NCBI GenBank assembly: GCA_963675755.2
Contig: CAXXMD010000002.1
Coordinates: 2,176,001-2,240,000 of the forward strand
Length of the DNA stretch: 64,000 nucleotides
Reading direction: 5' to 3'
DNA from: a bacterium
GTDB taxonomy: Bacteria; Zhuqueibacterota; Zhuqueibacteria; Residuimicrobiales; Krinioviventaceae
Part shown: positions 2,891-35,044 of the stretch, piece after piece
Layout: every line of letters begins with the position of its first letter
Position numbering within the stretch: the stretch's first letter is position 1
Translations under genes and position numbers: made by a program
The notes under the pieces: generated by a model
Told to the model about the DNA's origin: nothing
Database searches by the model: none
Seen by the model: only the letters and a program-made list of their open reading frames with translations

Positions 2891-3287
2891 ATCGTTCTCC
2901 CATAGAATCCATTTATCAATAAATTAATAAATGAATATTATAATCCAACATAATTTTTCAACATGTACTCAACAACTGCAAATCAATACAAGAGTAATGC
3001 TATCCCCAAAATTGACAATACGATTATTTGCCTAGTAATTTAAAATCTCATCCAGATAATTTTTATTTTTTTCAAATGATTGCACGTGGTCCATTTTTTT
3101 AATGCATTAGACAATACAGATACCCATCATAGTCTTTCTCTGTGTTCTCTGTGACTCTGTGGTTAGTTTCTTCTCAATGGAAATTTATATTTAAGGCATT
3201 ACCAAAAGAATTATTTTGTGCTTGTCTGCCTACTGGCGGATGTTTCGTAGGAATTGTATTGAGGAATTTATTAGAGACTATGCAAAC

Positions 3288-20826: not shown

Positions 20827-20949
20827 CGGACCCGGAATATCCACCGCAGGTGGATGTATCAACGGGCTGTGTCCTGAGTATCTACCGCAGGTGGATTTAT
20901 CGAAGGACTGTGTCCTGAGTATCCACCGCAGGTGGATGTATCGAAGGAC
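20827..20949. repeat. Three tandem 41-bp palindromic repeats
   Basis: Unit tgtgtcctgagtatccaccgcaggtggatgtatcgaaggac at ~20827, 20868 and 20909; degenerate fourth copy at 22131-22169. Confidence 0.85.
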
Positions 20950-21034
20950 ATTTAAGAATTACTCTCTACTTAAATTCTAGTGGGACATAAAAAGCTTTAC
21001 GTTGTGAATGATTATAAAAATAAAGGAACATTCC

Positions 21035-22126
21035 ATGTCAACCATAAAACGAGTAGGCGTTCTAACAGGCGGTGGTGACTGTCCCGGACTCAATGCAGTC
21101 ATCCGTGCGGTAGCCAAAGCATTGATAACAAAATATGACATAGAGGTTATTGGTATTGAAGATGGATTTGAAGGCCTGGTACACAATCGTATGCGTAACC
21201 TGACTTATGATGCAGTATCCGGTATATTACAAAGCGGCGGCACAATCCTGGGCACATCAAACAAGGCCAATCCCTTTAGCTACCCTGTTGAAGAAAATGG
21301 CAAGTCCGTGCTCAAAGACCTGAGCGACCAATCAATTGAAAATGCTAAAGCAGCCGGCATGGATGCTCTTGTCTGCATTGGCGGTGACGGCACCATGACC
21401 ATCGCAAGCCAGCTGATAGATAAAGGGCTACCCCTGATTGGTGTACCTAAAACCATCGACAATGATCTGTATGGTACTGATGTTACATTTGGATATGATA
21501 CAGCCGTATCCATTGCTGCGGAAGCAATTGACCGCATCCATACAACCGCACAGTCCCATCACCGTGTGATGCTGGTAGAGATCATGGGCCGCTATGCAGG
21601 ATGGCTCACCCTTGGCGCCGGTATTGCCGGCGGCGCAGACGTAATCATCATCCCCGAGATCGAATACAATCTGGATGCAATATGCGATGTTGTTGTCAAA
21701 CGCAGTAAAAAAGGCCGCCGGTTCAGCATTATAGCAGTGGCAGAAGGTGCAAAACCGCAAGGCGGCGAACTGACTGTCAGCCGAGTGGTTAAGGACAGTC
21801 CCGAAGCACTCAGACTTGGCGGTATTTCCGTAAAACTGGGCAATGACATTGAAGATCAAACCGGACTTGTAACCCGTGCAACCATTCTGGGCCATTTGCA
21901 GCGTGGCGGTACACCCACCGCATATGACCGTATTCTTTCTTCACGTTACGGCGTCGGCGCCGCGGACCTCATCGGTTCCGGTAACCTGAACCGCATGGTA
22001 GCCCTGCAAGGCAACGAGATCACCTCTGTGCCCATTACAGATATTGGCGGCAAAACCCGCAAAGTAGAAATGGATGATGAATTAATAGAGGTAGCCAAAA
22101 AAGTCGGCACCAATATGGGGATTTAG
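21035..22126 (+). CDS. pfkA: 6-phosphofructokinase (group III type)
   Basis: TGGGDCPGLNAVIRA, GGDGT, PKTIDND, EIMGR, LGHLQRGG; AAGGA RBS before ATG 21035. Confidence 0.93.
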   Translation: MSTIKRVGVLTGGGDCPGLNAVIRAVAKALITKYDIEVIGIEDGFEGLVHNRMRNLTYDAVSGILQSGGTILGTSNKANPFSYPVEENGKSVLKDLSDQSIENAKAAGMDALVCIGGDGTMTIASQLIDKGLPLIGVPKTIDNDLYGTDVTFGYDTAVSIAAEAIDRIHTTAQSHHRVMLVEIMGRYAGWLTLGAGIAGGADVIIIPEIEYNLDAICDVVVKRSKKGRRFSIIAVAEGAKPQGGELTVSRVVKDSPEALRLGGISVKLGNDIEDQTGLVTRATILGHLQRGGTPTAYDRILSSRYGVGAADLIGSGNLNRMVALQGNEITSVPITDIGGKTRKVEMDDELIEVAKKVGTNMGI

Positions 22127-22188
22127 ACCCGGATCCTGAGTTTCTACCACATGTGGAGTATCAAAAAACATTTCCATAATATCTATAT

Positions 22189-22217
22189 GTAGAGAACGGT
22201 CTGAGACCGTTCCCTAC
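22189..22217. repeat. GTAG-type REP palindrome
   Basis: gtagagaacggtctgagaccgttccctac, near-perfect inverted repeat. Confidence 0.7.
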
Positions 22218-22249
22218 ACGAATTATACATCGTGCATCCGCCAATTTCA

Positions 22250-22278
22250 CTCCCGCCCAAATTGAATTTGGGTGGGAG
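22250..22278. repeat. Long hairpin downstream of pfkA
   Basis: ctcccgcccaaatt-g-aatttgggtgggag. Confidence 0.55.
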
Positions 22279-22359
22279 ATTCTGTGAATCAATATTATAA
22301 CCACTCGCTATACTTGATGCAACCGCCAGTGGGCAGTCTATACTGCGTCCCAAACTCCG

Positions 22360-22506
22360 TAGCCTGTGTGAAAACTAAAAAATTATACTTTTTGGAGTGC
22401 AGCGCCTTTATGCGATGCGTCAGGTCGGAGGTCCGATTTAGATTAGACTTTATTGTCCAATTATTTATACCAAAGTAACATGATAAGTTCAATATTAGTA
22501 TATAAA
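22360..22506. mobile_element. Truncated MITE copy (left part), related to 24544-24823
   Basis: Starts tagcctgtgtgaaaa right after cgtcccaaactccg; shares ttttggagtgca.cgcctttatgcgatgcgtc.gg.cg.aggtccgattta with the full copy. Confidence 0.6.
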
Positions 22507-22634
22507 TATACTGCGTCCCAAACTCCGGTTTGGGACGCCAATGATTACGCGAAACTCTGTTTCGCAATACTAACCTTTACCTGATATTGTAGACACACCG
22601 AAAAGTTCGTATATTACAACAATGGAGGTGTGTT

Positions 22635-22937
22635 ATGAATGAACGAAAACCAAGACGCTCATTTAGTACGGAATTTAAGGTCAAAACAGTTAAATTGATC
22701 ATCGATGGGCAAAGGCCATTAAAAGCAGTTGCCCGAGAACTTGGAATAAATCCTTCAACACTTCGCAATTGGAAAAGAGAGTACCTTCAAGATGAAGAAA
22801 ATGCTTTTCCAGGCAAAGGACATTTGAAGCCTGCTGATCAGGAACTACGTGATCTCAAAAAGAAACTCGTTGACCTCGAAGAGGAGAACGAAATCTTAAA
22901 AAAAGCAATCAGCATCTTCTCCAAACTGCCGAAATGA
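22635..22937 (+). CDS. IS3 transposase OrfA (HTH + leucine zipper)
   Basis: RRSFSTEFK...VARELGINPSTLRNW...EENEILKKA; A7G slippery site at 22898-22905. Confidence 0.92.
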   Translation: MNERKPRRSFSTEFKVKTVKLIIDGQRPLKAVARELGINPSTLRNWKREYLQDEENAFPGKGHLKPADQELRDLKKKLVDLEEENEILKKAISIFSKLPK

Positions 22938-23815
22938 AATGTGAATTCATTTTTCTGCACCGCTCCAGATTTCGGCTGCAGAAGATGTGTGAAGCTTTTA
23001 AAGTATCCCGGAGCGGATATTATGCCTGGCGAAGACGCGGATCCAGTCAGCGCGAACTTGAAAATGAAAAATTACTCAAACTCATTAAACAGGTTCATGA
23101 GCAAAGTCGATATATTTACGGCAGTCCGCGAATTACAGCCGAGCTTAAAGCAATGAATAACAATTGCAGCAAAAACCGTGTTGCTCGCTTGATGCGTGAG
23201 AATGATATACGTTCTAAAGTTAAGAAAAAATATAAGGCTACGACATATTCAAAACACCGGTTTCGTGTTGCCGCAAATTTGCTAAACCAAAACTTTCATG
23301 CTGAACGGCCGGATCAGATTTGGCTGTCAGACATTACATATATCAAAGTCCAGAAGCAGTGGATGTATCTTGTAGCCATTATGGATTTGTTTTCCAGACA
23401 GATCATTAGCTGGCACTTAAGTCGTGATCTATCTTTGGACTTTGTGTTAAAGTCACTAAAAGATGCTGTTGCCAAACGAAAACCCGAAAAAGGGTTGATC
23501 TTTCATTCCGATCGCGGCATCCAGTATGCAAGTATTGAAGTAAAAGCATTTTTGAAAGAACAGGGTATTGTTCAAAGTATGAGTCGCAAAGGTGACTGTT
23601 ATGATAATGCCGTTATGGAATCTTTTTTTGGTACATTCAAATCTGAGTTTTATTCTTTTGAACGATTTGAATCCTTTCAGGATGCTGAACAAAAAATCTT
23701 TGATTATATTGACATCTTTTATAATTATAAACGGCTTCATTCAAGTTTGGATTATTTGTCACCTATTAACTTTGAAAACCAATTTAATCAAAAACGAGCT
23801 TTTCTTTGTGTCTAA
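22934..23815 (+). CDS. IS3 transposase OrfB (rve DDE)
   Basis: WLSDITYI, HSDRGIQY, DNAVMESFF; ATGA overlap with orfA. Confidence 0.94.
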   Translation: MKCEFIFLHRSRFRLQKMCEAFKVSRSGYYAWRRRGSSQRELENEKLLKLIKQVHEQSRYIYGSPRITAELKAMNNNCSKNRVARLMRENDIRSKVKKKYKATTYSKHRFRVAANLLNQNFHAERPDQIWLSDITYIKVQKQWMYLVAIMDLFSRQIISWHLSRDLSLDFVLKSLKDAVAKRKPEKGLIFHSDRGIQYASIEVKAFLKEQGIVQSMSRKGDCYDNAVMESFFGTFKSEFYSFERFESFQDAEQKIFDYIDIFYNYKRLHSSLDYLSPINFENQFNQKRAFLCV

Positions 23816-23870
23816 TTTTTCGGGTAAAGCTCAATACTGCTCAAGCAATTTAAGTATTACACCTAAAATA

Positions 23871-23897
23871 AACCGCCCTCTTCGTTCGATAAACGCG
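23871..23897 (+). repeat. GxxExxY-associated repeat, degenerate head copy
   Basis: aaccgccctcttcgttcgataaacgcg. Confidence 0.65.
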
Positions 23898-23952
23898 GTC
23901 TATAGCGTTCTCAATTTTTTAAAATGAATTGCTTTAAAGCATATCACGTCAT

Positions 23953-24462
23953 CTACTTGTCCATAGCAACATTAAAAACCTTTTCAATCAATTCTCTTTC
24001 CCGTTTCTCAAATAATTCCGGGATATCTTTTGATACGACATTTTTTTGCTGAAAAATAATTTTTGATTTCCCCGATAAAGATGAATAGACTTTGATAAAT
24101 ATATCATAAATATCTTTGGTTGGCAGGTTATCATCAGCATATTTTATTTCCAGCCGGGACATGATAAATGTATTCGCTCCCAATACGGTTTCAATAGGGG
24201 AACAATATTTTCTGTTAAATATGTAATACGGCTTTACATCATTCTTCATCAACTTTGTCAAATCATATTTTAAATAATTATCCGGATAATTTTCTTTAAA
24301 ATATTGCTCAACTTTTGCAAGCAATAATGGCGTTCCACCCCGATGATCATATCCTTCAGCAACATCCTGGCTTAGGAAGACAATCTTTATCTGCAATGAA
24401 TCAATCTCTTGCGAAAAAGCATGTATCGTAAAGCAAAAAAACAATACACATATTCTATTCAT
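23953..24462 (-). CDS. Hypothetical exported protein
   Basis: AAAGGA RBS then MNRICVLFFCFTIHAFS signal peptide; AT-rich. Confidence 0.65.
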   Translation of the reverse strand: MNRICVLFFCFTIHAFSQEIDSLQIKIVFLSQDVAEGYDHRGGTPLLLAKVEQYFKENYPDNYLKYDLTKLMKNDVKPYYIFNRKYCSPIETVLGANTFIMSRLEIKYADDNLPTKDIYDIFIKVYSSLSGKSKIIFQQKNVVSKDIPELFEKRERELIEKVFNVAMDK

Positions 24463-24543
24463 TATCAAATATCCTTTTACTCCCGAGCTTTTTGTACTTG
24501 GTTTGGGGATTAAAAAAAGTTTTACACATCGTCCCAAACTCCG

Positions 24544-24823
24544 CAGGTTGTGTAAAAAACAAGAAAAATTGTTATGTTTTTGGAGTGCATCGCCTTTATG
24601 CGATGCGTCGGGCCGAAGGTCCGATTTAAACCCACCTGCTTTTCAAATATTATAGATTTATTATTGTGATGTAAGTTCAACATTATTATGCAAATATAGT
24701 TAAATAGAGGCCGTCTCCGACGGCCCGCATTACATAAAGGTAATGCACTCCACGTCTTTTTTAAATTTTGCTCATAAATGTAATTTTATTTGTTTAAAAT
24801 TTAATTCATTTTCACACAGTCTG
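24544..24823. mobile_element. 280-bp MITE with IS1182-like ends
   Basis: Ends caggttgtgtaaaaa / ttttcacacagtctg; TCCG duplicated on both sides; splits the palindrome cgtcccaaac...tttgggacg. Confidence 0.75.
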
Positions 24824-24879
24824 TCCGATTTGGGACGCAATTGATAACGCGAAACTCTTACCATATAATAAATATAGAG

Positions 24880-26085
24880 TTATTTTCCCCACTCTTCCGG
24901 TACCACCGCAATACACACATCAGGATTCCCAAACCTGTTCGAGCTAAACTCTACCATCGTTCCGTTCAAATCCCAACCCGCATGCGGATGCGCGCCCTTG
25001 CCATAAGTCCTGTGACCCGTTGCCAAAATCTTTCGCTCGGTGGTTTTGGCATTGAACAAGGTAACAATACCATGCCAATTATCAGCAACTACCCATTTGC
25101 CATCAGGACTGCCAGACGCGTGCCACCAGTTTTCCTGAGCAATCTCTGAGGGCGTGCCTCCTTCCCACCAGGCACCGGGACCGATCACCCGTATTTCTCC
25201 CGTTTTCAGATCCAACACTTTGACATGCCCGTCTTCACTCGAGCCATCGCTGTTAAAACTGCCGATAAATGTAATCTGATCATTCACCCACCAGCATTCA
25301 TGTGTGACGAGTTCACCGGGTACCTGCTCAAACGCTGGGACAGGTACATGTGTATTTATATTCAAAAACCACAACCGAACATGCGCCGGTTCGTTCTTGT
25401 CCATAGGTGCTCTGTCACTGCCATAATTCCGACAAAAGGACAATACATCCGGTCTCTGTTTGTGGAACTGTAAATGCCCGATGTTAAAATCCACTTGCCC
25501 CGCCAATGCAACCTCTCCCGTTGCCAAATTGTATGTAGAAATAAAAGCTTTACTCTCGTTACCATATGCAAAGGCCAAAAGGCTTGCATCACTGTTTTCA
25601 GATAGACCTGTCAACTGTTTATATTTTTGTGGATACTCGGTCAGTTTTTTCTCAGTTACCTTGACAGATGTTTTCCCAGTGGTCACAATATCCAGTTTCC
25701 ATTCGTAAATAACTTTATCTCTTACCACATAAAGACGGTCCCCTTTGATTGAAGCATAAGGTGTAGCCGATTTCAGTTCATGCATTGAATCTAATCGTAC
25801 CAGCTCACCCGTATCCAGCAGATACGCCATAATATCTTGAGAACCAAACCGGTCCGAGTTGAACAACATCATCTTGTTATTGTGTAAAAAACAACGATCG
25901 TGGAAATAAAGATTCACATCCGATGCAGGATTAGATGTCACAAAAATCGTTTTGGCACCACTTTTCGCATCAAGTTCTACCTTGTGCTCAGGGGGTAAAA
26001 TTTCACAATTCCAGCTCGATTGAGATAATAAAATGGTGGGAACAAACAGCAAAAGGATCAAACAGCTTTTCAATTTCGCGTCCAT
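24880..26085 (-). CDS. Oligogalacturonate lyase-like beta-propeller protein, exported
   Basis: NLYFH, HLQF, THECW, WH, HPH metal-binding motifs; signal peptide from ATG 26085. Confidence 0.7.
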   Translation of the reverse strand: MDAKLKSCLILLLFVPTILLSQSSWNCEILPPEHKVELDAKSGAKTIFVTSNPASDVNLYFHDRCFLHNNKMMLFNSDRFGSQDIMAYLLDTGELVRLDSMHELKSATPYASIKGDRLYVVRDKVIYEWKLDIVTTGKTSVKVTEKKLTEYPQKYKQLTGLSENSDASLLAFAYGNESKAFISTYNLATGEVALAGQVDFNIGHLQFHKQRPDVLSFCRNYGSDRAPMDKNEPAHVRLWFLNINTHVPVPAFEQVPGELVTHECWWVNDQITFIGSFNSDGSSEDGHVKVLDLKTGEIRVIGPGAWWEGGTPSEIAQENWWHASGSPDGKWVVADNWHGIVTLFNAKTTERKILATGHRTYGKGAHPHAGWDLNGTMVEFSSNRFGNPDVCIAVVPEEWGK

Positions 26086-26257
26086 AACAGTCCTTTCGTT
26101 TTGCAAATAGTTTTAATGAGGATTTAACGCACTGCCAACATCAGCCATATTTAACGATAAGGAAAAATTTTCAGAATGCAAAGAAAATAAAAAAACAGAA
26201 AATAGTTTTCCCTATGAATTAATATGATTTATCTGCGTGGGTGAGATGCATTATATT

Positions 26258-26298
26258 AACCGCCCGCTTCGCTCGATAAACACAGATGAACGCTGATT
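26258..26298 (+). repeat. GxxExxY-associated repeat, head copy
   Basis: aaccgcccgcttcgctcgataaacacagatgaacgctgat. Confidence 0.8.
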
Positions 26299-26302
26299 TT
26301 CC

Positions 26303-26671
26303 TCAAAACCCGTTAACCATTCTCTTGATCTCAACTTTTGGATTACCAAAGTTGATGATCAAACCCACTTTGATGTTACAAGCCCTAAGATAATTCATCA
26401 ATTGAGCCTGATGTATATTGGAAATTTCTTTAACTGCTTTTAATTCTAATATTATTTTATTTTCAACAAACAAATCTGCAAAATATTCTCCAACAACTTG
26501 ATCACAATAAAAAACATTAATAGGTTTCTGCTGTTCAACCAATAAATTCTGCTTTTCCAATTCTATTCGGAAAGCATTCTCATAAACCTTTTCAAGGAAT
26601 CCCACTCCTAAAGTATTAGAAACCTGAAATGCAGCTGCAATTATGATTTCTGTAATATCATTTGTATACAT
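26303..26671 (-). CDS. GxxExxY protein (PD-(D/E)XK-like), copy 1
   Basis: LGVGFLEKVYE, ADLFVENKIILELKA, AQLMNYL, GLIINFG. Confidence 0.92.
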   Translation of the reverse strand: MYTNDITEIIIAAAFQVSNTLGVGFLEKVYENAFRIELEKQNLLVEQQKPINVFYCDQVVGEYFADLFVENKIILELKAVKEISNIHQAQLMNYLRACNIKVGLIINFGNPKVEIKRMVNGF

Positions 26672-26698
26672 TATACTCCCCTTGAGATATTTATGTTT

Positions 26699-26750
26699 TT
26701 ATCTGTGTTTATCTGCGCGTGTCCGACTATTGGCGGATTCATCTGTGGTT
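26699..26750 (-). repeat. GxxExxY-associated repeat, inverted tail copy with internal hairpin
   Basis: ttatctgtgtttatctgcgcgt[gtccgactattggcggat]tcatctgtggtt. Confidence 0.8.
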
Positions 26751-26852
26751 AATTATTTAACCACTCACTCTGCTAGAGTTACTCAAACCCCAATTCCTAC
26801 TGTCTTAAAACGAAAAGCAATTCGTTCGTCCGCCACAAGCAAACACTATCGT

Positions 26853-28811
26853 TTAATCCAGCTCTCCCCAGTCCTCCAGGCGCCGCAATGTCTCCAGCCT
26901 GAATGCACCGGGCCATGCCACCAGCCAGTCATTCATCATACCGGGAAGCTCTTTGCCGTTCCAGCTCCAGTGGCTTTGCAAAAACGCTTCATTTTGTGAC
27001 CCAATTGGCCTAATTTTACCCTTAATCTCCATGGTCCCGTTCGAAATCATTTGTGTACCATTGTACCAGATTGCAAGTGCCTTTTCACGCCAGATATCAT
27101 CACCTGTTCTTTCAGCAAGATCAAGCCAGTCTTTGACCCAAAACAACGCATAAGGATCTAAATGATGGTGCTGCGTTGAAACACTTGTAGCGCCAAAGGT
27201 ATCGTAACCATATGTAACAAAATCACTTTCCGGAGAATATTGATCGGAATAGTGCCACATCCATGTGGAAAGATACCAGGATATCTGCTCAGCAGCATCA
27301 AGATATTTTTTATCTTTTGTTAGATCATAAAAAAGGATTGCAGATCGAAGCAGCGTCATGGACGATTCTTTATCAATACACCAGGTATCCAGCGCACCCG
27401 CAGTGGTGTATCCGTTCTTCTGCAGTTCTCCGAAATAAAAAGCAAAAGCGGCAGTTGCCGAAGAGAGAAACCGCTTGTCACTGGTAAGTTCATATGCCTT
27501 GACCATAGGAGCAATCAAAAACGCACCAATCGTCCCTACCCTGTATAGACATTCACCCTCTGGCGTCCAACCTTTTCCATAGCATCCGTTTTCCAGTTGA
27601 TCATTGACCATAAATTTACAGATATTCAAAGCAATTTCACGGTACTCCGGACGTTCAAATCCGCATTCAGCAGCCAGATCATGAGCTTCAAAATAATTGA
27701 GAGCAGCTGTACCCAAATTACAGGCATCCAATCGCTCTTCATTTTTGGTAATTCCCAGTATATAATCAAAATGAGTTTTAAAAAGACCGTTGGGCAATGG
27801 ACAATATTTTGCCCAGGTATCAAGACAGGTAATCGCTTTATCTTTCGACTCTTCATCACCGGTTTTCAAATAATTCACAAGCAGTGAATTTGACAGAGAT
27901 GCATTCTGTCCGCACCAGCCGATTTCATATTTCCATCCGGGTCTCTGTATCCATTTGTCATTTCTCCAAACAAGGCCAATGCTGAAACCTTGATACACGC
28001 CTTCCTCAGCCCAGAGATATTGTTTGGCATATTGAACACCATACTCCCAAACTTTATCGGGATCAAGTTTTGCATCGCGTTTTTTATCCGCAATCTCCCA
28101 GGCCTCACGCATAAAACCGGAAATACTTTTATGGTTTGGCTTGACTTTTTCAGCAACCAGAATCGCTTCTACCGTAAATGATTCACCGGGCTCTAAATGC
28201 AGATTGTCTCTATAACCGTCACCATATCCGTCCCGTTTAATATAGCTAACGGGTTGTTCTTCTTCAGGCCAGATCAATCGATGTGTGGTTCTGTGTTTTT
28301 CCGGCATCAATGAACAGGAAAAATGGCTACCCTTTTCCAATACACCCCATAGTGCAACTGCATAAGCATCACTCTCGGAATAGGTCGCACCCGGAATTGA
28401 AGTAGAGCGGCTTGAAAAGCTCCAAAAAGCACCCTCATGCTCAAAACCCTTGGGCTCCTTTCCCTTTCCCCATGTATTGCCGTTATAACTCACAGCCGGG
28501 ATCATATTATAGCTGGTAGGTAATTGATGAACAACATCCAGAGTCAATCGTACTGAATCCAAAGCCGTTTCACCCGTATTGGAAAATGTCCGGGTGATTT
28601 TGAAAACACCTGACTTGAGTGCTTCAATCCGGTCCGATGCAGTGATATTCTCATAATAAAAAGGGACCAGTAAACCCACGGTTTTGCCGGACTCGTACAG
28701 TGTCCAGCCATCCGGAGTTTGGTCCCACTTGTAAATATTGCCAGAATGCTGGCAGGCAATGAATGACAAACATATGATTAAAACAACAATGGCGAGCGGA
28801 TTGTTTTTCAT
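26853..28811 (-). CDS. Lipoprotein with alpha/alpha-toroid (six-hairpin glycosidase-like) domain
   Basis: Lipobox FIAC; helical repeats such as YELTSDKRFLSSA and DLTKDKKYLDAA. Confidence 0.65.
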   Translation of the reverse strand: MKNNPLAIVVLIICLSFIACQHSGNIYKWDQTPDGWTLYESGKTVGLLVPFYYENITASDRIEALKSGVFKITRTFSNTGETALDSVRLTLDVVHQLPTSYNMIPAVSYNGNTWGKGKEPKGFEHEGAFWSFSSRSTSIPGATYSESDAYAVALWGVLEKGSHFSCSLMPEKHRTTHRLIWPEEEQPVSYIKRDGYGDGYRDNLHLEPGESFTVEAILVAEKVKPNHKSISGFMREAWEIADKKRDAKLDPDKVWEYGVQYAKQYLWAEEGVYQGFSIGLVWRNDKWIQRPGWKYEIGWCGQNASLSNSLLVNYLKTGDEESKDKAITCLDTWAKYCPLPNGLFKTHFDYILGITKNEERLDACNLGTAALNYFEAHDLAAECGFERPEYREIALNICKFMVNDQLENGCYGKGWTPEGECLYRVGTIGAFLIAPMVKAYELTSDKRFLSSATAAFAFYFGELQKNGYTTAGALDTWCIDKESSMTLLRSAILFYDLTKDKKYLDAAEQISWYLSTWMWHYSDQYSPESDFVTYGYDTFGATSVSTQHHHLDPYALFWVKDWLDLAERTGDDIWREKALAIWYNGTQMISNGTMEIKGKIRPIGSQNEAFLQSHWSWNGKELPGMMNDWLVAWPGAFRLETLRRLEDWGELD

Positions 28812-28913
28812 GGTTAATTGTTTCCTTAAAGACTGATCAGAGTATAATTGGAATTAAAATATACACATCGATCCTGAACAATTCAATAACAATAGCTCAA
28901 CACACTGTCAATT

Positions 28914-30287
28914 TTAATTTTTCCAGTTCTTTAACACATCAATTCCTTTTTCCAAAACAGGATCTTTACCATCAAAAACATCCTGACGAGTCTTTTGCAC
29001 AACAATATCAGGTTCAATCCCTTTGCCTACCCACTCTTTGCCGTCAGGATACAAGGTTTTCAAGGTAACAACTCTGAAATTGCCGCCACCGGGAAGCTGT
29101 ACACGATGCGGATTCCCGGTACTGCCGGCAGTTATTTCTCCCACAAGTACGGCCCGTTCTGTATAATCCAGAGGAATCAAAAAATCTTCAGCGGTACTGT
29201 AGGTTGAATGTCCTGTCAGAACCACCAACGGTCCGGAATACCGTTTGCCATCACGTGGCTGAATATATTCACTTCCCAAAAATCCGGTTTCCCATTCCGG
29301 TTCATTACCCCATGCAAGCAATGCGGGTACATACCTGGGCGACTTCCATATCATCGATTGTACAGGCTCATCAATGAATGCACCCAAAATGGGCCAGGCA
29401 TTTTGATCATTTCCACCCGGATTAAATCGAATATCCAGAACAATTCCCTTTACTGATGAGAGGTCCAATTCATCAAACAATTTCATAAATCCGGAAACCG
29501 TATTGTCACTGTCAAAATTGGCAATCTTAATATAGATCAATCCATCATTTAAAGCCTTCATCTCCACAGGAGGGTTGGCCATATACCATTCAAATAAACG
29601 TGTAAAATAAGGGGCCCCTGTTGAAGAGACTGAATTCCTCAACAAATCAATTGAACGGATTGTCCCATCCATATCTTTAACTTTTACCCACACTTGAGAA
29701 TCTTTGGGTCCACGCAATAGTTTATAGATATTGATGGCTTTATCCGCATGATCTGATCCTCTGGACTCGTATTTAACAACATGTGATTGATAATACGCTT
29801 CAACTGGCTGCCCATCAACCTCAACAATCTCCAATCCGGGATAAATATTATTTTGTTTTATATCCTCAGTTTCTTTAACGCGAGCGACAATATATTGATC
29901 ACCCAGAACCTGAACTTCCAAAGTCGGCCAGTCAAAAGCAGGATTAAAGGGCCCACCCGGTTTATTGACAGCAGTGTGCCCGTCTTTTAACAACGCAGCA
30001 AATTCGCACAGCACATCATAATATGCATCCATATCTTGAGCGGCTAAGGCTTTGGGAAGATATTCTTTATATTTTGCATCCCAATCCAAATCGGGACGTT
30101 GATCAAAAAAGGGGAAATTGTATTTTGCTTCGGCCCATACTATGGACAAGCCTGCGGCCTTTTGCTCAACGGTACCGGTCCAGGGTTCTGCAGATTGAGC
30201 AGCAACAAATTGAAATGTGATAAAAACGAGTAAACAGATAAAAAGGGAAATACCTGAGGGAAATCGAGAGTCATTCATACAAACCAT
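28914..30287 (-). CDS. Peptidase S41 family
   Basis: LKDGHT, LDIRFNPGG, TYSTAEDF, VGEITAG, GKGIEPD. Confidence 0.88.
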   Translation of the reverse strand: MVCMNDSRFPSGISLFICLLVFITFQFVAAQSAEPWTGTVEQKAAGLSIVWAEAKYNFPFFDQRPDLDWDAKYKEYLPKALAAQDMDAYYDVLCEFAALLKDGHTAVNKPGGPFNPAFDWPTLEVQVLGDQYIVARVKETEDIKQNNIYPGLEIVEVDGQPVEAYYQSHVVKYESRGSDHADKAINIYKLLRGPKDSQVWVKVKDMDGTIRSIDLLRNSVSSTGAPYFTRLFEWYMANPPVEMKALNDGLIYIKIANFDSDNTVSGFMKLFDELDLSSVKGIVLDIRFNPGGNDQNAWPILGAFIDEPVQSMIWKSPRYVPALLAWGNEPEWETGFLGSEYIQPRDGKRYSGPLVVLTGHSTYSTAEDFLIPLDYTERAVLVGEITAGSTGNPHRVQLPGGGNFRVVTLKTLYPDGKEWVGKGIEPDIVVQKTRQDVFDGKDPVLEKGIDVLKNWKN

Positions 30288-30516
30288 GCCTTTCTGTAAA
30301 TTTTACAACATCAAAAAGCACCAATCCTGTTAAAAGCTTTAAGTATTGATGCAAAGGTTTTACAACAAACCGGATGTTTTTTATTACGGAAAAGGTCCCT
30401 CAGGGTTTCATAGGTGAAAATTTTTATGATGCAGAAAAAGTATGTATAGATGGGATGACAGCAAAGCAATTTTCAGTCATCTTATTCCCCATTTTTTTCT
30501 CAAGTTAATTTAATTT

Positions 30517-30566
30517 AACCGCCCGCTTTACTCGATAAATCCAATTGTACAGATAAGCTCAGATAA
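30517..30566 (+). repeat. GxxExxY-associated repeat, head copy
   Basis: aaccgcccgctttactcgataaat...acagataagctcagataa. Confidence 0.75.
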
Positions 30567-30587
30567 AGTCATATTGAAACGTTTTTT

Positions 30588-30959
30588 TCAGAATCCATTA
30601 ACCATTCGCTTGATCTCAACCTTTGGATTACCAAAGTTAATTATCAAACCCACTTGAATATTACAAGCCCTGAGATAATTCATTAATTGAGCATGATGGA
30701 TATGTATAATTTCTTTAACAGCCTTTAATTCTATTATTATCTTATTTTCTATAAATAAATCCGCAAAATATTCCCCTACAGGTTCAGAACCATAGAACAC
30801 TGTAATGGTTTTCTGCTGTTCAACCTTGAAGCCTTGCTTTTCCAATTCTATTCGCAAAGCATTTTCATAGACTTTTTCCAGAAAACCCGTTCCCAAAGTA
30901 TTAGAAACCTGATATGCAGCCGCAATAATTTTCTCTGTAATCTCGTTTGTTTTCACCAA
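30588..30959 (-). CDS. GxxExxY protein, copy 2
   Basis: LGTGFLEKVYE; about 21 differences in 122 aa from copy 1 by manual alignment. Confidence 0.92.
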   Translation of the reverse strand: MVKTNEITEKIIAAAYQVSNTLGTGFLEKVYENALRIELEKQGFKVEQQKTITVFYGSEPVGEYFADLFIENKIIIELKAVKEIIHIHHAQLMNYLRACNIQVGLIINFGNPKVEIKRMVNGF

Positions 30960-31010
30960 ACACCCCCATGCTTCGTTTTCAAACTATCTACAACTAACTT
31001 TTATAAATAT

Positions 31011-31050
31011 AACCGCCCGCTTCGCTCGATAAACACAGATAAACGCAGAT
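31011..31050 (+). repeat. GxxExxY-associated repeat, head copy
   Basis: aaccgcccgcttcgctcgataaacacagataaacgcagat. Confidence 0.85.
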
Positions 31051-31170
31051 GCCTTTTTCCATAAGTTATCGTTTGGTTCTGACAGCTTGCCCTTTAAATA
31101 TTAAGTATAATAATTTTAACAAGTTGTAAGTTCTTATGGCAACTAATAAATTTGAATTTAATAATTGAAT

Positions 31171-32091
31171 CTATCGTAACAAAATTTTTCTCGCATCAAA
31201 ATTATCAAGAGTATCTTTTTCAATGAATTCAACTTTAAGCCTTTTCAAATTGGGAATATCAGCTATATATTCCATCAATCTAATTCTTATTATATTTACA
31301 TTAATTCCGATCTTTTCTTTATTGTAAACTATTAACAAAACTGGAACAACGGATTTCCTTAATGAATTTGCTTTATAGTACGAAACATAGGTATTAAGTT
31401 TATCAATCGCTCTTTTCAGAGTAGCAAAAGGTAATTGATTATCAAAAAATTTAATCTCAATTATTCTATCTGCAAATTTTTTAGTTTTTGCTTTTAAAAA
31501 CAAATCAATATAGAAACGATTTCCAAGTATTTGTTCAGTATAAACCTCAAAATTAGGACTCTTCAAATCTTTGAAAATTTTATATATCCTTTGTTCAACT
31601 TCCACATATTTATTATAAATATCTTTTTTCTTACCATGAACATTATTTTTTAGTTCAATTCTCTTATCAAACTCAATTTCATCAACTTCATTTTTAGCTT
31701 TCTCTTCTTTCTCTTCAGGAGTCATTGATTTTAATTCAATCTTTAACTTATCAAGTTCTATTTCAAATCTTTCATCAATTATTGCCTGTTTTTTAAACCA
31801 TCGAATTAATCCAAACATACAAGAAGCAATACCTATTAGAAGCATCAAAATAGAAGAAAAAAGTAGATATTTTTGTATCAACATTACTAAATTCTGTTTT
31901 GATACAATCAGCTTCTGAACAGGTTCTTCAAACTTTAATAGTTGTTCTTTTTCTAAATATAAACCAAAATCCTCTTGTAAATATAAATAAGGTATTATAA
32001 CAGCCAATCCAATTAGAATTATACCTATTGAAACTAAAAATTTATTAATATCGCCATAATCAATATGTTGCATCATTGTATTTATTCTCAC
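31171..32091 (-). CDS. 2-TM + coiled-coil + PD-(D/E)XK-like nuclease-domain protein
   Basis: Two hydrophobic helices, EEKEEKAKNE coil, YIDLFL...RIIEIK motif; very AT-rich. Confidence 0.6.
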   Translation of the reverse strand: MRINTMMQHIDYGDINKFLVSIGIILIGLAVIIPYLYLQEDFGLYLEKEQLLKFEEPVQKLIVSKQNLVMLIQKYLLFSSILMLLIGIASCMFGLIRWFKKQAIIDERFEIELDKLKIELKSMTPEEKEEKAKNEVDEIEFDKRIELKNNVHGKKKDIYNKYVEVEQRIYKIFKDLKSPNFEVYTEQILGNRFYIDLFLKAKTKKFADRIIEIKFFDNQLPFATLKRAIDKLNTYVSYYKANSLRKSVVPVLLIVYNKEKIGINVNIIRIRLMEYIADIPNLKRLKVEFIEKDTLDNFDARKILLR

Positions 32092-32173
32092 AATTAATAA
32101 AAAAATGGGATTAATTATAAAAAATCAATCATAATATTTTCGCAAGCACATTAATATCAAGATACATAAAATA

Positions 32174-33034
32174 TTATAAATTTTTAAACCAACTTTTATT
32201 TATATTGACTTTCTCAACCAATTCAACACTTACACCCAAGTTTAGTTCTTTTAACCTCTCAGCAAAATCATTTCCATCAATTAAATCAATAGGAGTGGCC
32301 CCATCCCTTTGAGCTTCTTTTTTTGCTTCACGTGTAAAACTTCCAGTGGTCATTATGAGTCCTTTATCAGCACGACCAATCATTGCTCCTCGGAAATCTC
32401 TTATTACTGATGATGATACTGATCCTTGATATCTTTTTGCTTGAAAAACAACATGATAGGATAAAACACCCCCTATTTTTATTATACCTTTTCCGTCTAT
32501 CCCACCATCGTTAGTTTTTCCTGTAACTTCGACATTAACAAATCCCAATTCACGTAATAATCTTTGAGATAGTCGTTCAAATTGATCTGGTTTTATATTC
32601 TTAATAGTTTCCAGTAATTCATCTTGCCAAGGAAATTCTTCTATCTCTTCTAAATTATTATAGAGTATCTTATCCTCAGTTTTATTTTGCTTTTTTAAAC
32701 GTTCTTGCTTGTCAAGTTTTACAACAGCTTTTTTAACAATTTCTTGATTAACAGACTCTGTTTTTTGTCCCGCATCTGTTAATGCCCAAACTCCTCTTGA
32801 AGAATTTTCTAATAATCCATATCGTTTCAAGTAATTTCTTGCCCAAGCAAGTCTATAAGTCAGTTTTGTTGTACTTTCCCTGTGTATTTCATTAACAGCA
32901 TCTTCATTCAAGTTCAAAATTTTAACAACTTCTTCTTCGATTTCACTAATTGCTCCTGATCCACCTAAATTTCTTAATGCGATTAAAGTTGGATTGAAAA
33001 GGTCATCATATTTGTAATTAAAATACTTGTCCAT
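32174..33034 (-). CDS. mrr: Mrr type IV restriction endonuclease
   Basis: Mrr_N (ALRNLGGSG...YRLAWARNYLK...RGVWALT); Mrr_cat (FERL, DGGIDG, QAKRY, IDLIDG). Confidence 0.9.
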   Translation of the reverse strand: MDKYFNYKYDDLFNPTLIALRNLGGSGAISEIEEEVVKILNLNEDAVNEIHRESTTKLTYRLAWARNYLKRYGLLENSSRGVWALTDAGQKTESVNQEIVKKAVVKLDKQERLKKQNKTEDKILYNNLEEIEEFPWQDELLETIKNIKPDQFERLSQRLLRELGFVNVEVTGKTNDGGIDGKGIIKIGGVLSYHVVFQAKRYQGSVSSSVIRDFRGAMIGRADKGLIMTTGSFTREAKKEAQRDGATPIDLIDGNDFAERLKELNLGVSVELVEKVNINKSWFKNL

Positions 33035-33191
33035 AAAATGCTTTCCTGAACATTAAACTATATAATAATACAACTAAATAATAATCAATAATAAATATCA
33101 ACAATAATTTCCCCTGAATTCCCACATACTTTATAATTCAATAAACACATAAACTCCAAATATTGCAAGAAAAATAATATTGCCCAAGTTT

Positions 33192-33223
33192 TTTATCTGT
33201 GTTTATCTGTGTTTATCTGCGGT
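33192..33223 (-). repeat. GxxExxY-associated repeat, inverted tail copy
   Basis: (tttatctgtg)2 tttatctgcggt. Confidence 0.8.
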
Positions 33224-33344
33224 CAATTAATTTAAACGAAACCTACCTGAGGCAAATACCTATTTTACCAGGTAAACAGATTCAGAAAAAGAAGGTTAAT
33301 GATTACTGCTTTGCGGTTGATATCAGCAAATCCCCGTTAATATA

Positions 33345-34883
33345 TTATTTTCTCGCGTCGCTCTCTTTTTCAGCTTTTAATCCCTGTTCAGTAAAATCTT
33401 CCTGTTCAGGCGTACCATAAGCGCGCAGAATGCGTCGAATCATCTCGGTTGTTGACATTCCCTCAACCCCTGGCAACAGCGCAATAGCGCCGTTATAGCT
33501 TTCAACCAGTTTACGTTCTTCCTGGTTAATGGTATCCAGCGTATAATCTCCACCCTTGGCATAAACATCCGGTTTTAACGTTTCTATCATTCCTACGGGA
33601 GAATAATCATCAAACACAACCACATAGTCCACAAATCCCAAAGAAGACAAAACCTTGGCGCGCTCGTTTTCTTCCATCACAGGACGCAAAACACCTTTGA
33701 TCTTTTGCACCGATGCATCACTGTTTAATCCCACAACCAGAATATCTCCCAATGCTTTGGCCTTTTCCAGATAAATCACATGGCCGGCATGCAGAATATC
33801 GTAACAGCCATTGGTCCAGACAACCTTTTTGCCCTCAACCTTGGCCTTGTTAACAATTTTTTTCAATTGTTCAAGATTTACATGTTTTTTAGTCGTATCG
33901 TTCAGAGCCATACGCTTTGCTGCTGTTAGAACGTCTGAGCTTTTAAAAACATGATAACCATTATGAGTCAATGCTATAGATGCCAAAAGACTGGCAAATT
34001 CCGCTGTCTCTTGCGGATCAATTCCCGCCATCACGCCTGCTGTAACACCACACAAAACCGCTTCGTCCGAGCCGTGGTTATCCTGTATCAATTGTGATTT
34101 ACCGGGCACATGCAGAACATCCGGTTCACCGGTCACCACACTAATACCTTCACTCCCCAGTGTCATATAGACCTGTTTACAATTCAAATGACTGTGCAGC
34201 CGCTTGGCAAGCTGATCGGATTTGTTTTCTTTGCCATTCAAAAGCGACAAAACCGATTTCACATGCGGTACAACAGCATCAAACTTTTTCAAATCCTCAA
34301 GTTGTTCCAGTGAATTTCCAATAAATGGAATTTTCTTACCTTTTGCCAGTTTTTGGACCGCAGTGGTTATTCCACGGGTCATAATACTTTTATCATGATC
34401 CAAAAATACTACGCCATCACATTCATCAATATGTGCTTCTATATGATCATAAAACATTTCATACTTTTCTTCTGAAAGAGAAACCGGATCGGTAGAGTCA
34501 ATTTTCAAAATATCCCGGTCACTGTACCTGCAGCCTTCCACACGGATTTGTGTGCGGCAGGTGGTGCGGTATTCATCATCCAACACAGTACATTGGGTTC
34601 CAACACCTTGTTTTTTCAAAATTCTCATCAAGTCATTGCCAGCGGTATCATTCCCCATAACAGTAAACAAGGTGACTTTGAATCCCAGGCGTACAAGCAA
34701 TAATGCCAAATATCCCGCAGCACCTGGCACCTGGCTGCGGTGATGTTTCTGCACAACAGGTATAGGACCATCGTCAGACAATCGTTCTACTTCACCATAC
34801 AGGATCTCACTTAAAAAAACATCACCTATCAGGTAAATGTGTTTGCCTTTGACCTTGTTTAGAATGTTTTGTACCTGCTGCAT
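33345..34883 (-). CDS. hldE: HldE/RfaE-like protein: degenerate PfkB kinase domain + heptose-1-P adenylyltransferase
   Basis: C-term TNGCYDILHAGH, GLNSDASV, KGGDY, STT intact; N-term ribokinase motifs altered. Confidence 0.75.
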   Translation of the reverse strand: MQQVQNILNKVKGKHIYLIGDVFLSEILYGEVERLSDDGPIPVVQKHHRSQVPGAAGYLALLLVRLGFKVTLFTVMGNDTAGNDLMRILKKQGVGTQCTVLDDEYRTTCRTQIRVEGCRYSDRDILKIDSTDPVSLSEEKYEMFYDHIEAHIDECDGVVFLDHDKSIMTRGITTAVQKLAKGKKIPFIGNSLEQLEDLKKFDAVVPHVKSVLSLLNGKENKSDQLAKRLHSHLNCKQVYMTLGSEGISVVTGEPDVLHVPGKSQLIQDNHGSDEAVLCGVTAGVMAGIDPQETAEFASLLASIALTHNGYHVFKSSDVLTAAKRMALNDTTKKHVNLEQLKKIVNKAKVEGKKVVWTNGCYDILHAGHVIYLEKAKALGDILVVGLNSDASVQKIKGVLRPVMEENERAKVLSSLGFVDYVVVFDDYSPVGMIETLKPDVYAKGGDYTLDTINQEERKLVESYNGAIALLPGVEGMSTTEMIRRILRAYGTPEQEDFTEQGLKAEKESDARK

Positions 34884-35044
34884 GAAACCTCCAAATTATA
34901 CAAAAAAGCTTGTAAATTCTCACAACAGTAAAGTTAAAAAGAATTTACAATAACTGCAAATTCTTTATCCCCTTTTCAATACACAGGTTGATTGCAACAC
35001 CTTAAATTAGTATATTATCAGAAATTAACAGGACTTTTCCCAGT

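Follow-up and report, generated by a model that had tools for sequence, protein, structure and literature searches.

A 64,000-nt stretch of the Zhuqueibacterota assembly GCA_963675755.2 (contig CAXXMD010000002.1, positions 2,176,001 to 2,240,000; hereafter the window) carries two genes for GxxExxY proteins, both associated with one family of short inverted repeats. The repeats and the genes they enclose form four units, the fourth of which is weakly supported, clustered in a 9.4-kb variable stretch that runs from pfk and an IS3-family insertion sequence (IS) to hldE. The unit loops contain GxxExxY-1, GxxExxY-2, an AT-rich pair consisting of an Mrr-type restriction endonuclease gene and ORF306, and, in the weakly supported unit, two other open reading frames (ORFs). 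Herein, we describe these repeats as members of a hairpin family that recurs in several phyla, and we weigh whether the GxxExxY nuclease may act on the hairpins or merely travels with them.

One repeat arm, the head, was searched for as a 24-nt pattern with up to 3 mismatches. Four matches were found in the window and none in 100 shuffles. All four lie on the plus strand, at 23871, 26258, 30517, and 31011, in agreement with the co-oriented heads listed by a first-pass annotation of this DNA. H1 (23871..23910) carries 2 mismatches in 24 and is the most diverged copy, H3 (30517..30569) carries 3 mismatches in 24 and two diverged decamers, and H4 (31011..31050) is 95% identical to H2 (26258..26297) across 41 nt. 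The inverted tails of the same annotation were also recovered on the plus strand, T2 at 26696..26752 and T4 at 33192..33224 (three decamers and then GCGGTC), together with a partial tail, t1, at 26227..26243. These tails are inverted copies of the head's decamer section and of its outer hexamer, and the head arm at 31028-31050 is 96% complementary to the tail arm at 33195-33217 across 23 nt. Heads and tails are the two arms of one imperfect palindrome and constitute a family of hairpin-forming extragenic elements. The palindrome ends in AACCGC and GCGGTT, tandem 10-mers make up its arms, and the head arm carries in addition a bulge of 11 nt. Read along the sense strand of the cargo, here the minus strand, a unit opens with AACCGC or AACCAC and (AGATAAACAC)n, continues through the cargo, and closes with (GTGTTTATCT)n, the 11-nt insert GAGCGAAGCGG (absent from the tail), and GCGGTT.

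The decamer is concentrated at these arms. With up to one mismatch, AGATAAACAC has 14 matches in the window versus 4.9 ± 2.5 expected, and 7 of the 14 fall at 26274-26283, 26695-26714, 31027-31046, and 33199-33218. A generic detector of at least two CRCRGA motifs spaced 8-11 nt apart, with the motif chosen after inspection of the data, returned only the sites of the cluster and a solo tail at 3136..3166 (plus strand), with a shuffle mean of 0.24. The solo tail is intergenic, with a nitrilase-family gene on one side and a PorV-like gene on the other. It ends in GTGGTTA and is of a related 9-mer (CAGAGA) type, which gives the genome at least two arm types. CRCRGA counts were also considered as a measure of polarity relative to the gene, and this use was dropped because the palindrome reads identically on both strands, leaving the enrichment alone. 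No Rfam family was found over the repeats in window positions 21000-35000, at 12 head loci of other genomes, or at the Bacteroides and Gemmatirosa loci described below.

GxxExxY-1 (26303..26671, minus strand, 122 aa) is the most compactly enclosed gene. On its sense strand T2 forms the 5' arm, 25 nt ahead of the start codon, and H2 forms the 3' arm, 6 nt after the stop, so the tight head/tail enclosure proposed earlier stands, and the two ends pair in the predicted fold. GxxExxY-2 (30588..30959, minus strand, 123 aa) is followed by H3 18 nt after its stop and preceded by a possible degenerate tail at 30975..31000 (plus strand), which matches T2 weakly, at about 15 of 26 positions in the unit alignment. 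Homology between the two GxxExxY units extends from about 40 nt ahead of the start codon through the head. T4 and H4, which pair with one another, enclose the Mrr gene (32174..33034) and ORF306 (31171..32091), both on the minus strand. The first-pass annotation had drawn a single set around GxxExxY-2 and the Mrr cassette; in light of the unit alignment, this set reads better as two abutting units.

On the minus strand the order of the cluster is tail 33224, Mrr, ORF306, and head 31011; degenerate tail, GxxExxY-2, and head 30517; an S41 peptidase gene and a 652-aa ORF; tail 26752, GxxExxY-1, and head 26258; and finally partial tail 26243, a 408-aa ORF, an unrelated miniature inverted-repeat transposable element (MITE), ORF194, and head 23871, followed by the IS3 element. 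A 14-nt spacer separates t1 from H2, a tail/head junction of neighboring units. The eight main ORFs between 23953 and 33034 all run along the minus strand, and the heads end 6 to about 120 nt past a minus-strand stop codon, both as first described. The claim that cargo genes are bracketed by the repeats holds for Mrr and ORF306 and fails for the S41 peptidase gene and the 652-aa ORF (together 26853..30287, minus strand), which lie outside every head/tail pair. The 652-aa ORF has no family match, the DNA of the two genes has normal GC content, and they are probably resident genes.

Both GxxExxY proteins are full-length members of their family. GxxExxY-1 and GxxExxY-2 matched PF13366 with E values of 1.5e-42 and 5.4e-43 (145.1 and 146.5 bits versus a cutoff of 22) and TIGR04256 over the full length with E values of 1.2e-43 and 4.6e-44 (148.1 and 149.5 bits versus a cutoff of 35). 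They share 100 of 120 residues (83%), the identity counted by hand in the earlier note, and no third copy was found in the window by tblastn. The residues G24, E27, Y30, D66, E76, and K78 are invariant across 34 aligned sequences. An AlphaFold model (pLDDT 95.9) has a nuclease-like alpha/beta fold. Among solved structures it comes closest to Cas4 SSO0001, lambda exonuclease, MGME1, tRNA-splicing endonuclease, and Hjc; template modeling (TM) scores reach 0.57 and E values start at 1.4e-3. Based on the model and these folds, the protein is predicted to be a minimal PD-(D/E)XK nuclease core with an intact catalytic set and no additional DNA-binding domain. The PDDEXK_3-type assignment of the earlier note (TIGR04256/PDDEXK_3, nuclease-like fold) is therefore upheld by the profile scores, the predicted model, and the invariant catalytic residues. 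A sequence search of the PDB returned nothing relevant to GxxExxY. The family is large: a search at E ≤ 1e-10 recovered 6,393 relatives. The closest of these share about 70% identity, and Pedobacter contributes many at about 66%. Its function was given as "Unknown" in the part of a 2012 superfamily survey that treats it (PMC3424549).

To place the repeat outside the window, reference genomes were scanned with a head pattern of 19 fixed bases and 4 N. The scan returned 53 loci with 54 matches; the source genome is not among the matching records. Fifty-one loci lie in 12 metagenome-assembled genomes (MAGs), with 17 in Omnitrophota (5 MAGs), 32 in Spirochaetota/Leptospiraceae (5 MAGs), 1 in a Planctomycetia-labeled MAG, and 1 in a KSB1 MAG. 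The remaining 2 matches, one in an archaeon and one in a Prolixibacteraceae MAG, both fall within long ORFs and are probably chance; about 4 chance matches were expected, as estimated from the information content of the pattern. The loci hardly differ at the four positions left free (N) in the pattern or over about 15 nt past it. An inverted tail ending in ATCTGCGGTT follows within 420 nt at 31 of the 52 real heads, and the others comprise 1 variant tail, 1 head-to-head pair, 7 heads cut by contig ends, and about 12 solo heads. The usual form elsewhere is a gene-less intergenic hairpin of 80-400 nt, present in multiple copies, with decamer arms and often with further palindromes within. The genes around it are ordinary (murF|mraY, efp|accB, V-ATPase subunits, gidA/gidB, serS, and leuS). 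In Omnitrophota the inverted repeat reaches about 45 nt further outward. The left flank there (TTGACA...) had been considered as a promoter for a head RNA, and this was dropped because the sequence recurs inverted at the right flank and is therefore part of a longer inverted repeat. Blastn of the head against plasmids and phages gave either nothing or two chance-level partial matches.

GxxExxY genes of other genomes were located in a plasmid collection, where three different queries returned the same 10 places in 8 records. Nine of these places were examined together with the 2 window genes, giving 11 genes from five phyla; a tblastn search of phages gave no match. Arms or a full hairpin lie within 150 nt of 7 of the 11 genes, in KSB1-like, Bacteroidota, Gemmatimonadota, and Spirochaetota records. 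In Bacteroides finegoldii, inverted arrays of short tandem repeats form 30-nt arms that begin with TTCACCACAGAGG and end with CCTCTGTGGTGAA; 22 nt separate them from the start codon and 10 nt from the stop codon. The Bernardetia gene is tightly bracketed by 28-nt arms, and the Treponema gene has a 13-nt version. One Gemmatirosa gene is flanked by two complete 81-nt hairpins whose start GAACCGCAGAGGAC and end GTCCTCTGCGGTTC are the window ends, and 50 nt downstream of another there is a hairpin of the GCGGATCAC type. In other phyla, too, GxxExxY genes lie in or directly beside hairpins with common ACC(G/A)C ends and 9-10-mer arms. The proposed linkage of repeat and gene holds in this form, but the head sequence itself is not specific to GxxExxY, as the counts at heads given below show. 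At all 6 annotated loci (among them fabD|fabG, radA|FAD protein, and ade|mannose-1-P guanylyltransferase), GxxExxY is co-oriented with both neighbors across tiny spacers. The records NZ_OY7257xx-OY7260xx (B. finegoldii, Parabacteroides distasonis, and Phocaeicola massiliensis) carry radA, thrA/thrC, and pgm, and these "plasmid N" entries look like chromosome contigs filed as plasmids.

Adjacency of gene and hairpin is unlikely to be a matter of chance because of the hairpin densities in Gemmatirosa and Bacteroides. One 50-kb stretch of Gemmatirosa holds 6 hairpins, 2 of which flank GxxExxY, another 50 kb holds 1, which is beside the gene, and the B. finegoldii record holds 4 in 24.8 kb, one with GxxExxY in its loop. 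The arm type also tracks the protein lineage, albeit with small numbers. The proteins of loci L059 and L055 are 56% identical and those of L059 and L062 are 47% identical, with CAGAG-type arms common to them (the prefix L marks our numbered loci in other genomes), and the L057 and L062 proteins, encoded on one plasmid, are 39% identical and have differing arm types. Between Bacteroides and Gemmatirosa, the arms are 94-97% identical over 32-33 nt and the proteins are 47% identical.

Filled and empty sites were compared for several insertions. In the B. finegoldii spacer between radA and the FAD-protein gene, 1 nt after the radA stop is followed by a 462-nt unit of arm, gene, and arm and then by 5 nt, whereas the corresponding radA spacer of P. 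distasonis is 13 nt. The arms-plus-gene unit is therefore a discrete insertion with breakpoints at the outer ends of the inverted repeat. This is the kind of empty site that the earlier note had called for, found here between genera. A gene-less decamer-type hairpin occupies the pgm|thrC junction of B. finegoldii and is absent in Phocaeicola and Parabacteroides. At that species' locus L065 (22233-22251), the annotated phosphoglycerate mutase gene overlaps, at its 3' end, the left arm of a hairpin by 18 nt; the final codons and stop of this housekeeping gene have therefore been replaced by the insertion. GxxExxY also lies between fabD and fabG in Sphingomonas parapaucimobilis and not in S. paeninsulae. 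Gene-less hairpin copies far outnumber gene-bearing ones: the Gemmatirosa hairpin occurs at 40 or more places on each of two megaplasmids versus 3 GxxExxY places, and the Bacteroides arm type was found in 9 Bacteroides records, one of which has GxxExxY. On Gemmatirosa plasmid 1 (L063, 6493-6656 and 19231-19413), hairpins of one subtype sit in the loops of another subtype, and hairpin loops look like preferred insertion points.

The occurrence of GxxExxY in or beside hairpins across phyla suggests that the nuclease spreads them. Hairpin elements found across phyla insert in intergenic spacers and carry GxxExxY in or beside them as repeat-bounded units; we give the explanation as a whole, in which the nuclease would act on these hairpins, a probability of roughly 55%. 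For the stronger statement that GxxExxY is the element-borne function propagating the hairpin family, we put the chance at slightly below even. Two versions can be envisaged. In the first, GxxExxY would nick or cut the hairpin or its ends in trans, as a REP-associated tyrosine transposase (RAYT) does on repetitive extragenic palindromic (REP) sequences. In the second, it would cut empty hairpins, and repair would copy in the gene-bearing version, amounting to homing into a repeated target; a gene in the loop would split the target and thereby protect its own copy. In the transcript, the arms may close a stem around the ORF, as in the intervening sequences of 23S rRNA, and such a stem could let a promoterless selfish ORF live within operons. 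The fullest form of the proposal is speculative, and we think it unlikely to hold in every part. In that form, GxxExxY would be the nuclease of an undescribed cross-phylum selfish element, the tandem 9-10-mer arms with ACC(G/A)C ends would be its recognition sites, and it would spread gene-less hairpins or home into loops without a transposase or integrase.

Several observations weigh against the proposal that the nuclease acts on the hairpins. No GxxExxY gene was found within 2 kb of a head at any of the 54 oriented loci, including the 52 real heads (tblastn, best E 1.9), and none of 132 ORFs near 51 heads matches PDDEXK_3; this absence does not refute action in trans. Arms of this kind are missing at 4 of the 11 GxxExxY genes, with direct repeats at L054 and L061, only upstream 8-mers at L060, and nothing at L056. 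Other cargo occurs in or beside the elements, such as Mrr and ORF306 in the window. In a Spirochaetes MAG (L004), two heads 523 nt apart flank a gene for a 107-aa GIY-YIG nuclease, which is located about 70 to 480 nt beyond the head in head-oriented coordinates. This gene is enclosed by a 48-nt inverted repeat of its own, near-perfect and from another sequence family (GTCATTCCCGC...GGGAATCC), and a related copy is present in L034. At L003, HigBA-like and PLD-like genes lie between three complete hairpins. No target-site duplication was seen at 9 compact elements or at one filled/empty pair whose empty site is from another genus, and the filled/empty comparisons in general are between species or genera rather than strains. 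The arm motif CRCRGA was, as stated, a post hoc choice. The strand data are modest: the GAGCGAAGCGG-bearing strand is the more stable as RNA in 22 of 31 elements (150 versus 90 G-U pairs) and, where the flanking ORFs are parallel, is the sense strand at 17 loci and the opposite strand at 6 (p 0.035), figures that are only suggestive because the copies are paralogues, and the single wobble of the T4/H4 pair sits on the opposite strand.

The main rival explanation is that GxxExxY is only a frequent passenger of the repeats, for example a defense or addiction nuclease that does not act on them. The hairpins would then be MITE- or REP-like elements moved by an enzyme encoded elsewhere, or recombination-prone palindromes, and small genes would land in their loops or at their edges. 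This explanation readily accommodates the Mrr and ORF306 genes within a head/tail pair, the GIY-YIG gene that brings its own inverted repeat to a head, the PLD-like and toxin-antitoxin-like genes between hairpins, and the hairpins nested in loops, as well as the 52 heads without GxxExxY and the 4 GxxExxY genes without arms. It is harder to reconcile with the tight bracketing in Bacteroides and the window, where the arms stand about 10-25 nt from start and stop codons, with the tracking of protein lineage by arm type, and with the Gemmatirosa densities that make chance adjacency unlikely. Moreover, no transposase, integrase, or Y1 gene lies beside the window units except the unrelated IS3; among the 57 window ORFs scanned there is no integrase and no Y1 transposase. 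We regard the passenger explanation as possible, with the odds against it.

A role at the RNA level, comparable to that of the 23S rRNA intervening sequences, is doubtful as the leading explanation, though it is compatible with the other readings. Here the arms would pair into a long stem enclosing the ORF, and RNase III would cut this stem, freeing a small mRNA and insulating the host operon, and gene-less copies would serve as stabilizers of mRNA ends or as processing sites. The predicted RNA fold of the 509-nt unit 1 favors this idea: its ends, T2 with H2, pair in both the minimum free energy structure (-118.5 kcal/mol) and the centroid, its z score is -3.2 with none of 100 shuffles equally stable, and a ribosome-binding site lies within the loop. 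The size and layout match the intervening sequence characterized in the portion of PMC4990558 cited below, the genes are always co-oriented with their neighbors, and the 17 to 6 orientation bias and the better fold of the sense strand point the same way. However, the near-identity of about 40 nt of arm across phyla exceeds the needs of a stem, and the tandem 9-10-mer periodicity is reminiscent of arrayed protein-binding sites. An RNA role also leaves the spread of the units unexplained, the repeats have no Rfam match, and a scan of 23800-33300 for consensus promoters and terminators gave no excess over shuffles. An integron-like cassette array, in which the hairpins would be attC-like sites for a tyrosine recombinase, is rejected as very improbable: the co-oriented, apparently promoterless ORFs, the imperfect palindromes, which have AAC...GTT at their outer ends and an unpaired segment placed asymmetrically, and the alternation of complete hairpins with small cargo genes at L003 recall such arrays, but no integrase was found among the 57 window ORFs scanned, the genes in the window and in Bacteroides lie inside the palindrome rather than between palindromes (ORFs between complete hairpins being a feature of L003 only), most copies stand singly between housekeeping genes, and hairpins are nested in loops.

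The Mrr protein contains Mrr_N and Mrr_cat and is classified by PADLOC as mREase_IV / PDC-S02, and ORF306 is membrane-anchored, with PD-(D/E)XK/Mrr-like as its Atlas lead (0.98). The pair lies in DNA of 25-32% GC, compared with 41% for the window, and this AT-rich two-gene module may be a type IV restriction-like defense pair. In the weakly supported unit between t1 and H1, the 408-aa ORF (24880..26106, minus strand) is beta-propeller-like, with weak TolB and oligogalacturonate-lyase matches, and ORF194 (23953..24537, minus strand), which has no family match, may be cargo; H1 lies 43 nt past its stop. On its other side H1 adjoins the right end of the IS3-family element (22585-23830; HTH_Tnp_1 and rve in two overlapping plus-strand ORFs, 22635-22937 and 22934-23815). 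As the IS3 element abuts H1, several kinds of mobile DNA are gathered in the 9.4-kb stretch. The unrelated MITE-like repeat is present at 22339-22560, upstream of the IS3 element, and at 24523-24858, between ORF194 and the 408-aa ORF; it has an internal 27-nt hairpin and a terminal inverted repeat of about 31 nt (22344-22374 versus 24809-24839, 77% complementary). Three tandem 41-nt repeats at 20832-20954, each with a CCACCGCAGGTGG palindrome, follow a 962-aa BamA-like ORF and precede pfk. The remaining window encodes core housekeeping functions (among them alr, tilS, hpt, ftsH, folP, dnaG, and type IX secretion genes), and no rRNA lies within 21000-35000. The PFK has its best named relatives in KSB1 and Calditrichaeota, at about 70% identity, which makes a KSB1-like organism probable; a close relative encodes a PFK that is 99% identical.

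GxxExxY/PDDEXK_3 is a very large family, and a defined, conserved DNA or RNA structure provides it with a concrete candidate substrate. In the full-text literature searched, outside which most subscription journals fall, nothing tied GxxExxY/PDDEXK_3 to palindromic repeats; we found no published account of the link between GxxExxY and the hairpins, while REP/RAYT systems, intervening sequences, and MITEs are already known kinds. Should the nuclease act on the hairpins, DNA would have a new route of spread that requires no transposase or integrase, and compact nucleases with sequence or structure specificity would be available from it. Such action would also account for the near-identical 40-nt sequences in distant phyla, the genes wedged in fabD|fabG and between radA and the next gene, and the contig breaks in MAGs. 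If the fullest form of the proposal were true, GxxExxY would be the PD-(D/E)XK counterpart of REP/RAYT, and it would explain the layout of rRNA intervening sequences and the small nuclease genes squeezed inside conserved operons. If GxxExxY is only a passenger, the hairpins still matter as a cross-phylum repeat and an insertion hot spot that annotation pipelines leave unnamed.

Among known systems, the closest in organization are REP/RAYT. In the relevant sections of PMC3337134 and PMC3733652, which define REPs, REPINs, and RAYTs, the RAYT is an IS200/IS605-like tyrosine (HUH) transposase, and REPs are described in PMC3733652 as palindromes of 20-40 bp tagged GTAG or CGTC at one end. As in REP/RAYT, the elements here are multicopy extragenic palindromes, a rare gene is embedded among inverted copies, and gene-less copies are far commoner. 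Unlike REPs, however, they are 80-400 nt long with AACCGC/GCGGTT ends and tandem 9-10-mer arms, the gene can occupy the loop, and the protein is a 122-aa PD-(D/E)XK nuclease by prediction. Inheritance of REPIN-RAYT systems is mostly vertical, as far as the consulted part of 10.1101/2022.05.22.493013 states, whereas the arm sequence here is common to several phyla. The analogy with RAYT/REP drawn by the first-pass annotation thus keeps its multicopy palindromes and its excess of gene-less copies, but the protein is not an HUH/Y1 transposase, and the relation is therefore one of analogy and not of membership.

The other comparisons concern layout. The 23S rRNA intervening sequence treated in the pertinent part of PMC4990558 is 428 nt long, has a 28-bp stem and an ORF, and is cut by RNase III; according to the same part, the sporadic distribution of such sequences suggests horizontal transfer, and a part in mobility has long been suspected for their ORF. 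Our units resemble them in enclosing an ORF of about 120 aa within about 430-500 nt by stem-forming terminal inverted repeats. They differ in lying in protein-gene spacers rather than rRNA helices, in encoding a nuclease rather than an S23p four-helix-bundle protein, and in having many gene-less copies; moreover, RNase III cutting has been shown for the intervening sequence and is hypothetical for the present stems. Like MITEs, the elements have terminal inverted repeats, occur as short gene-less copies beside longer gene-bearing ones, form insertions that related genomes lack, and break assemblies, with 7 of 52 heads cut by contig ends. Unlike MITEs and ISs, they show no DDE transposase, and the whole short element is one long hairpin of tandem short repeats; no target-site duplication was visible at the 9 compact elements and the one filled/empty pair compared between genera. 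Integron cassettes share the promoterless, co-oriented ORFs and attC-like palindromes already mentioned and are set apart, besides the integrase and the position of the genes, by the 11-nt bulge being on one arm only. With homing endonuclease genes, the elements have in common a small nuclease gene precisely inserted in, and thereby splitting, a conserved sequence, filled and empty versions of the site, and classical folds among the cargo (PD-(D/E)XK in the window, GIY-YIG in L004). The likeness is one of layout only; the target here would be a repeated palindrome and not a unique gene, and the homology arms are only about 30-100 nt.

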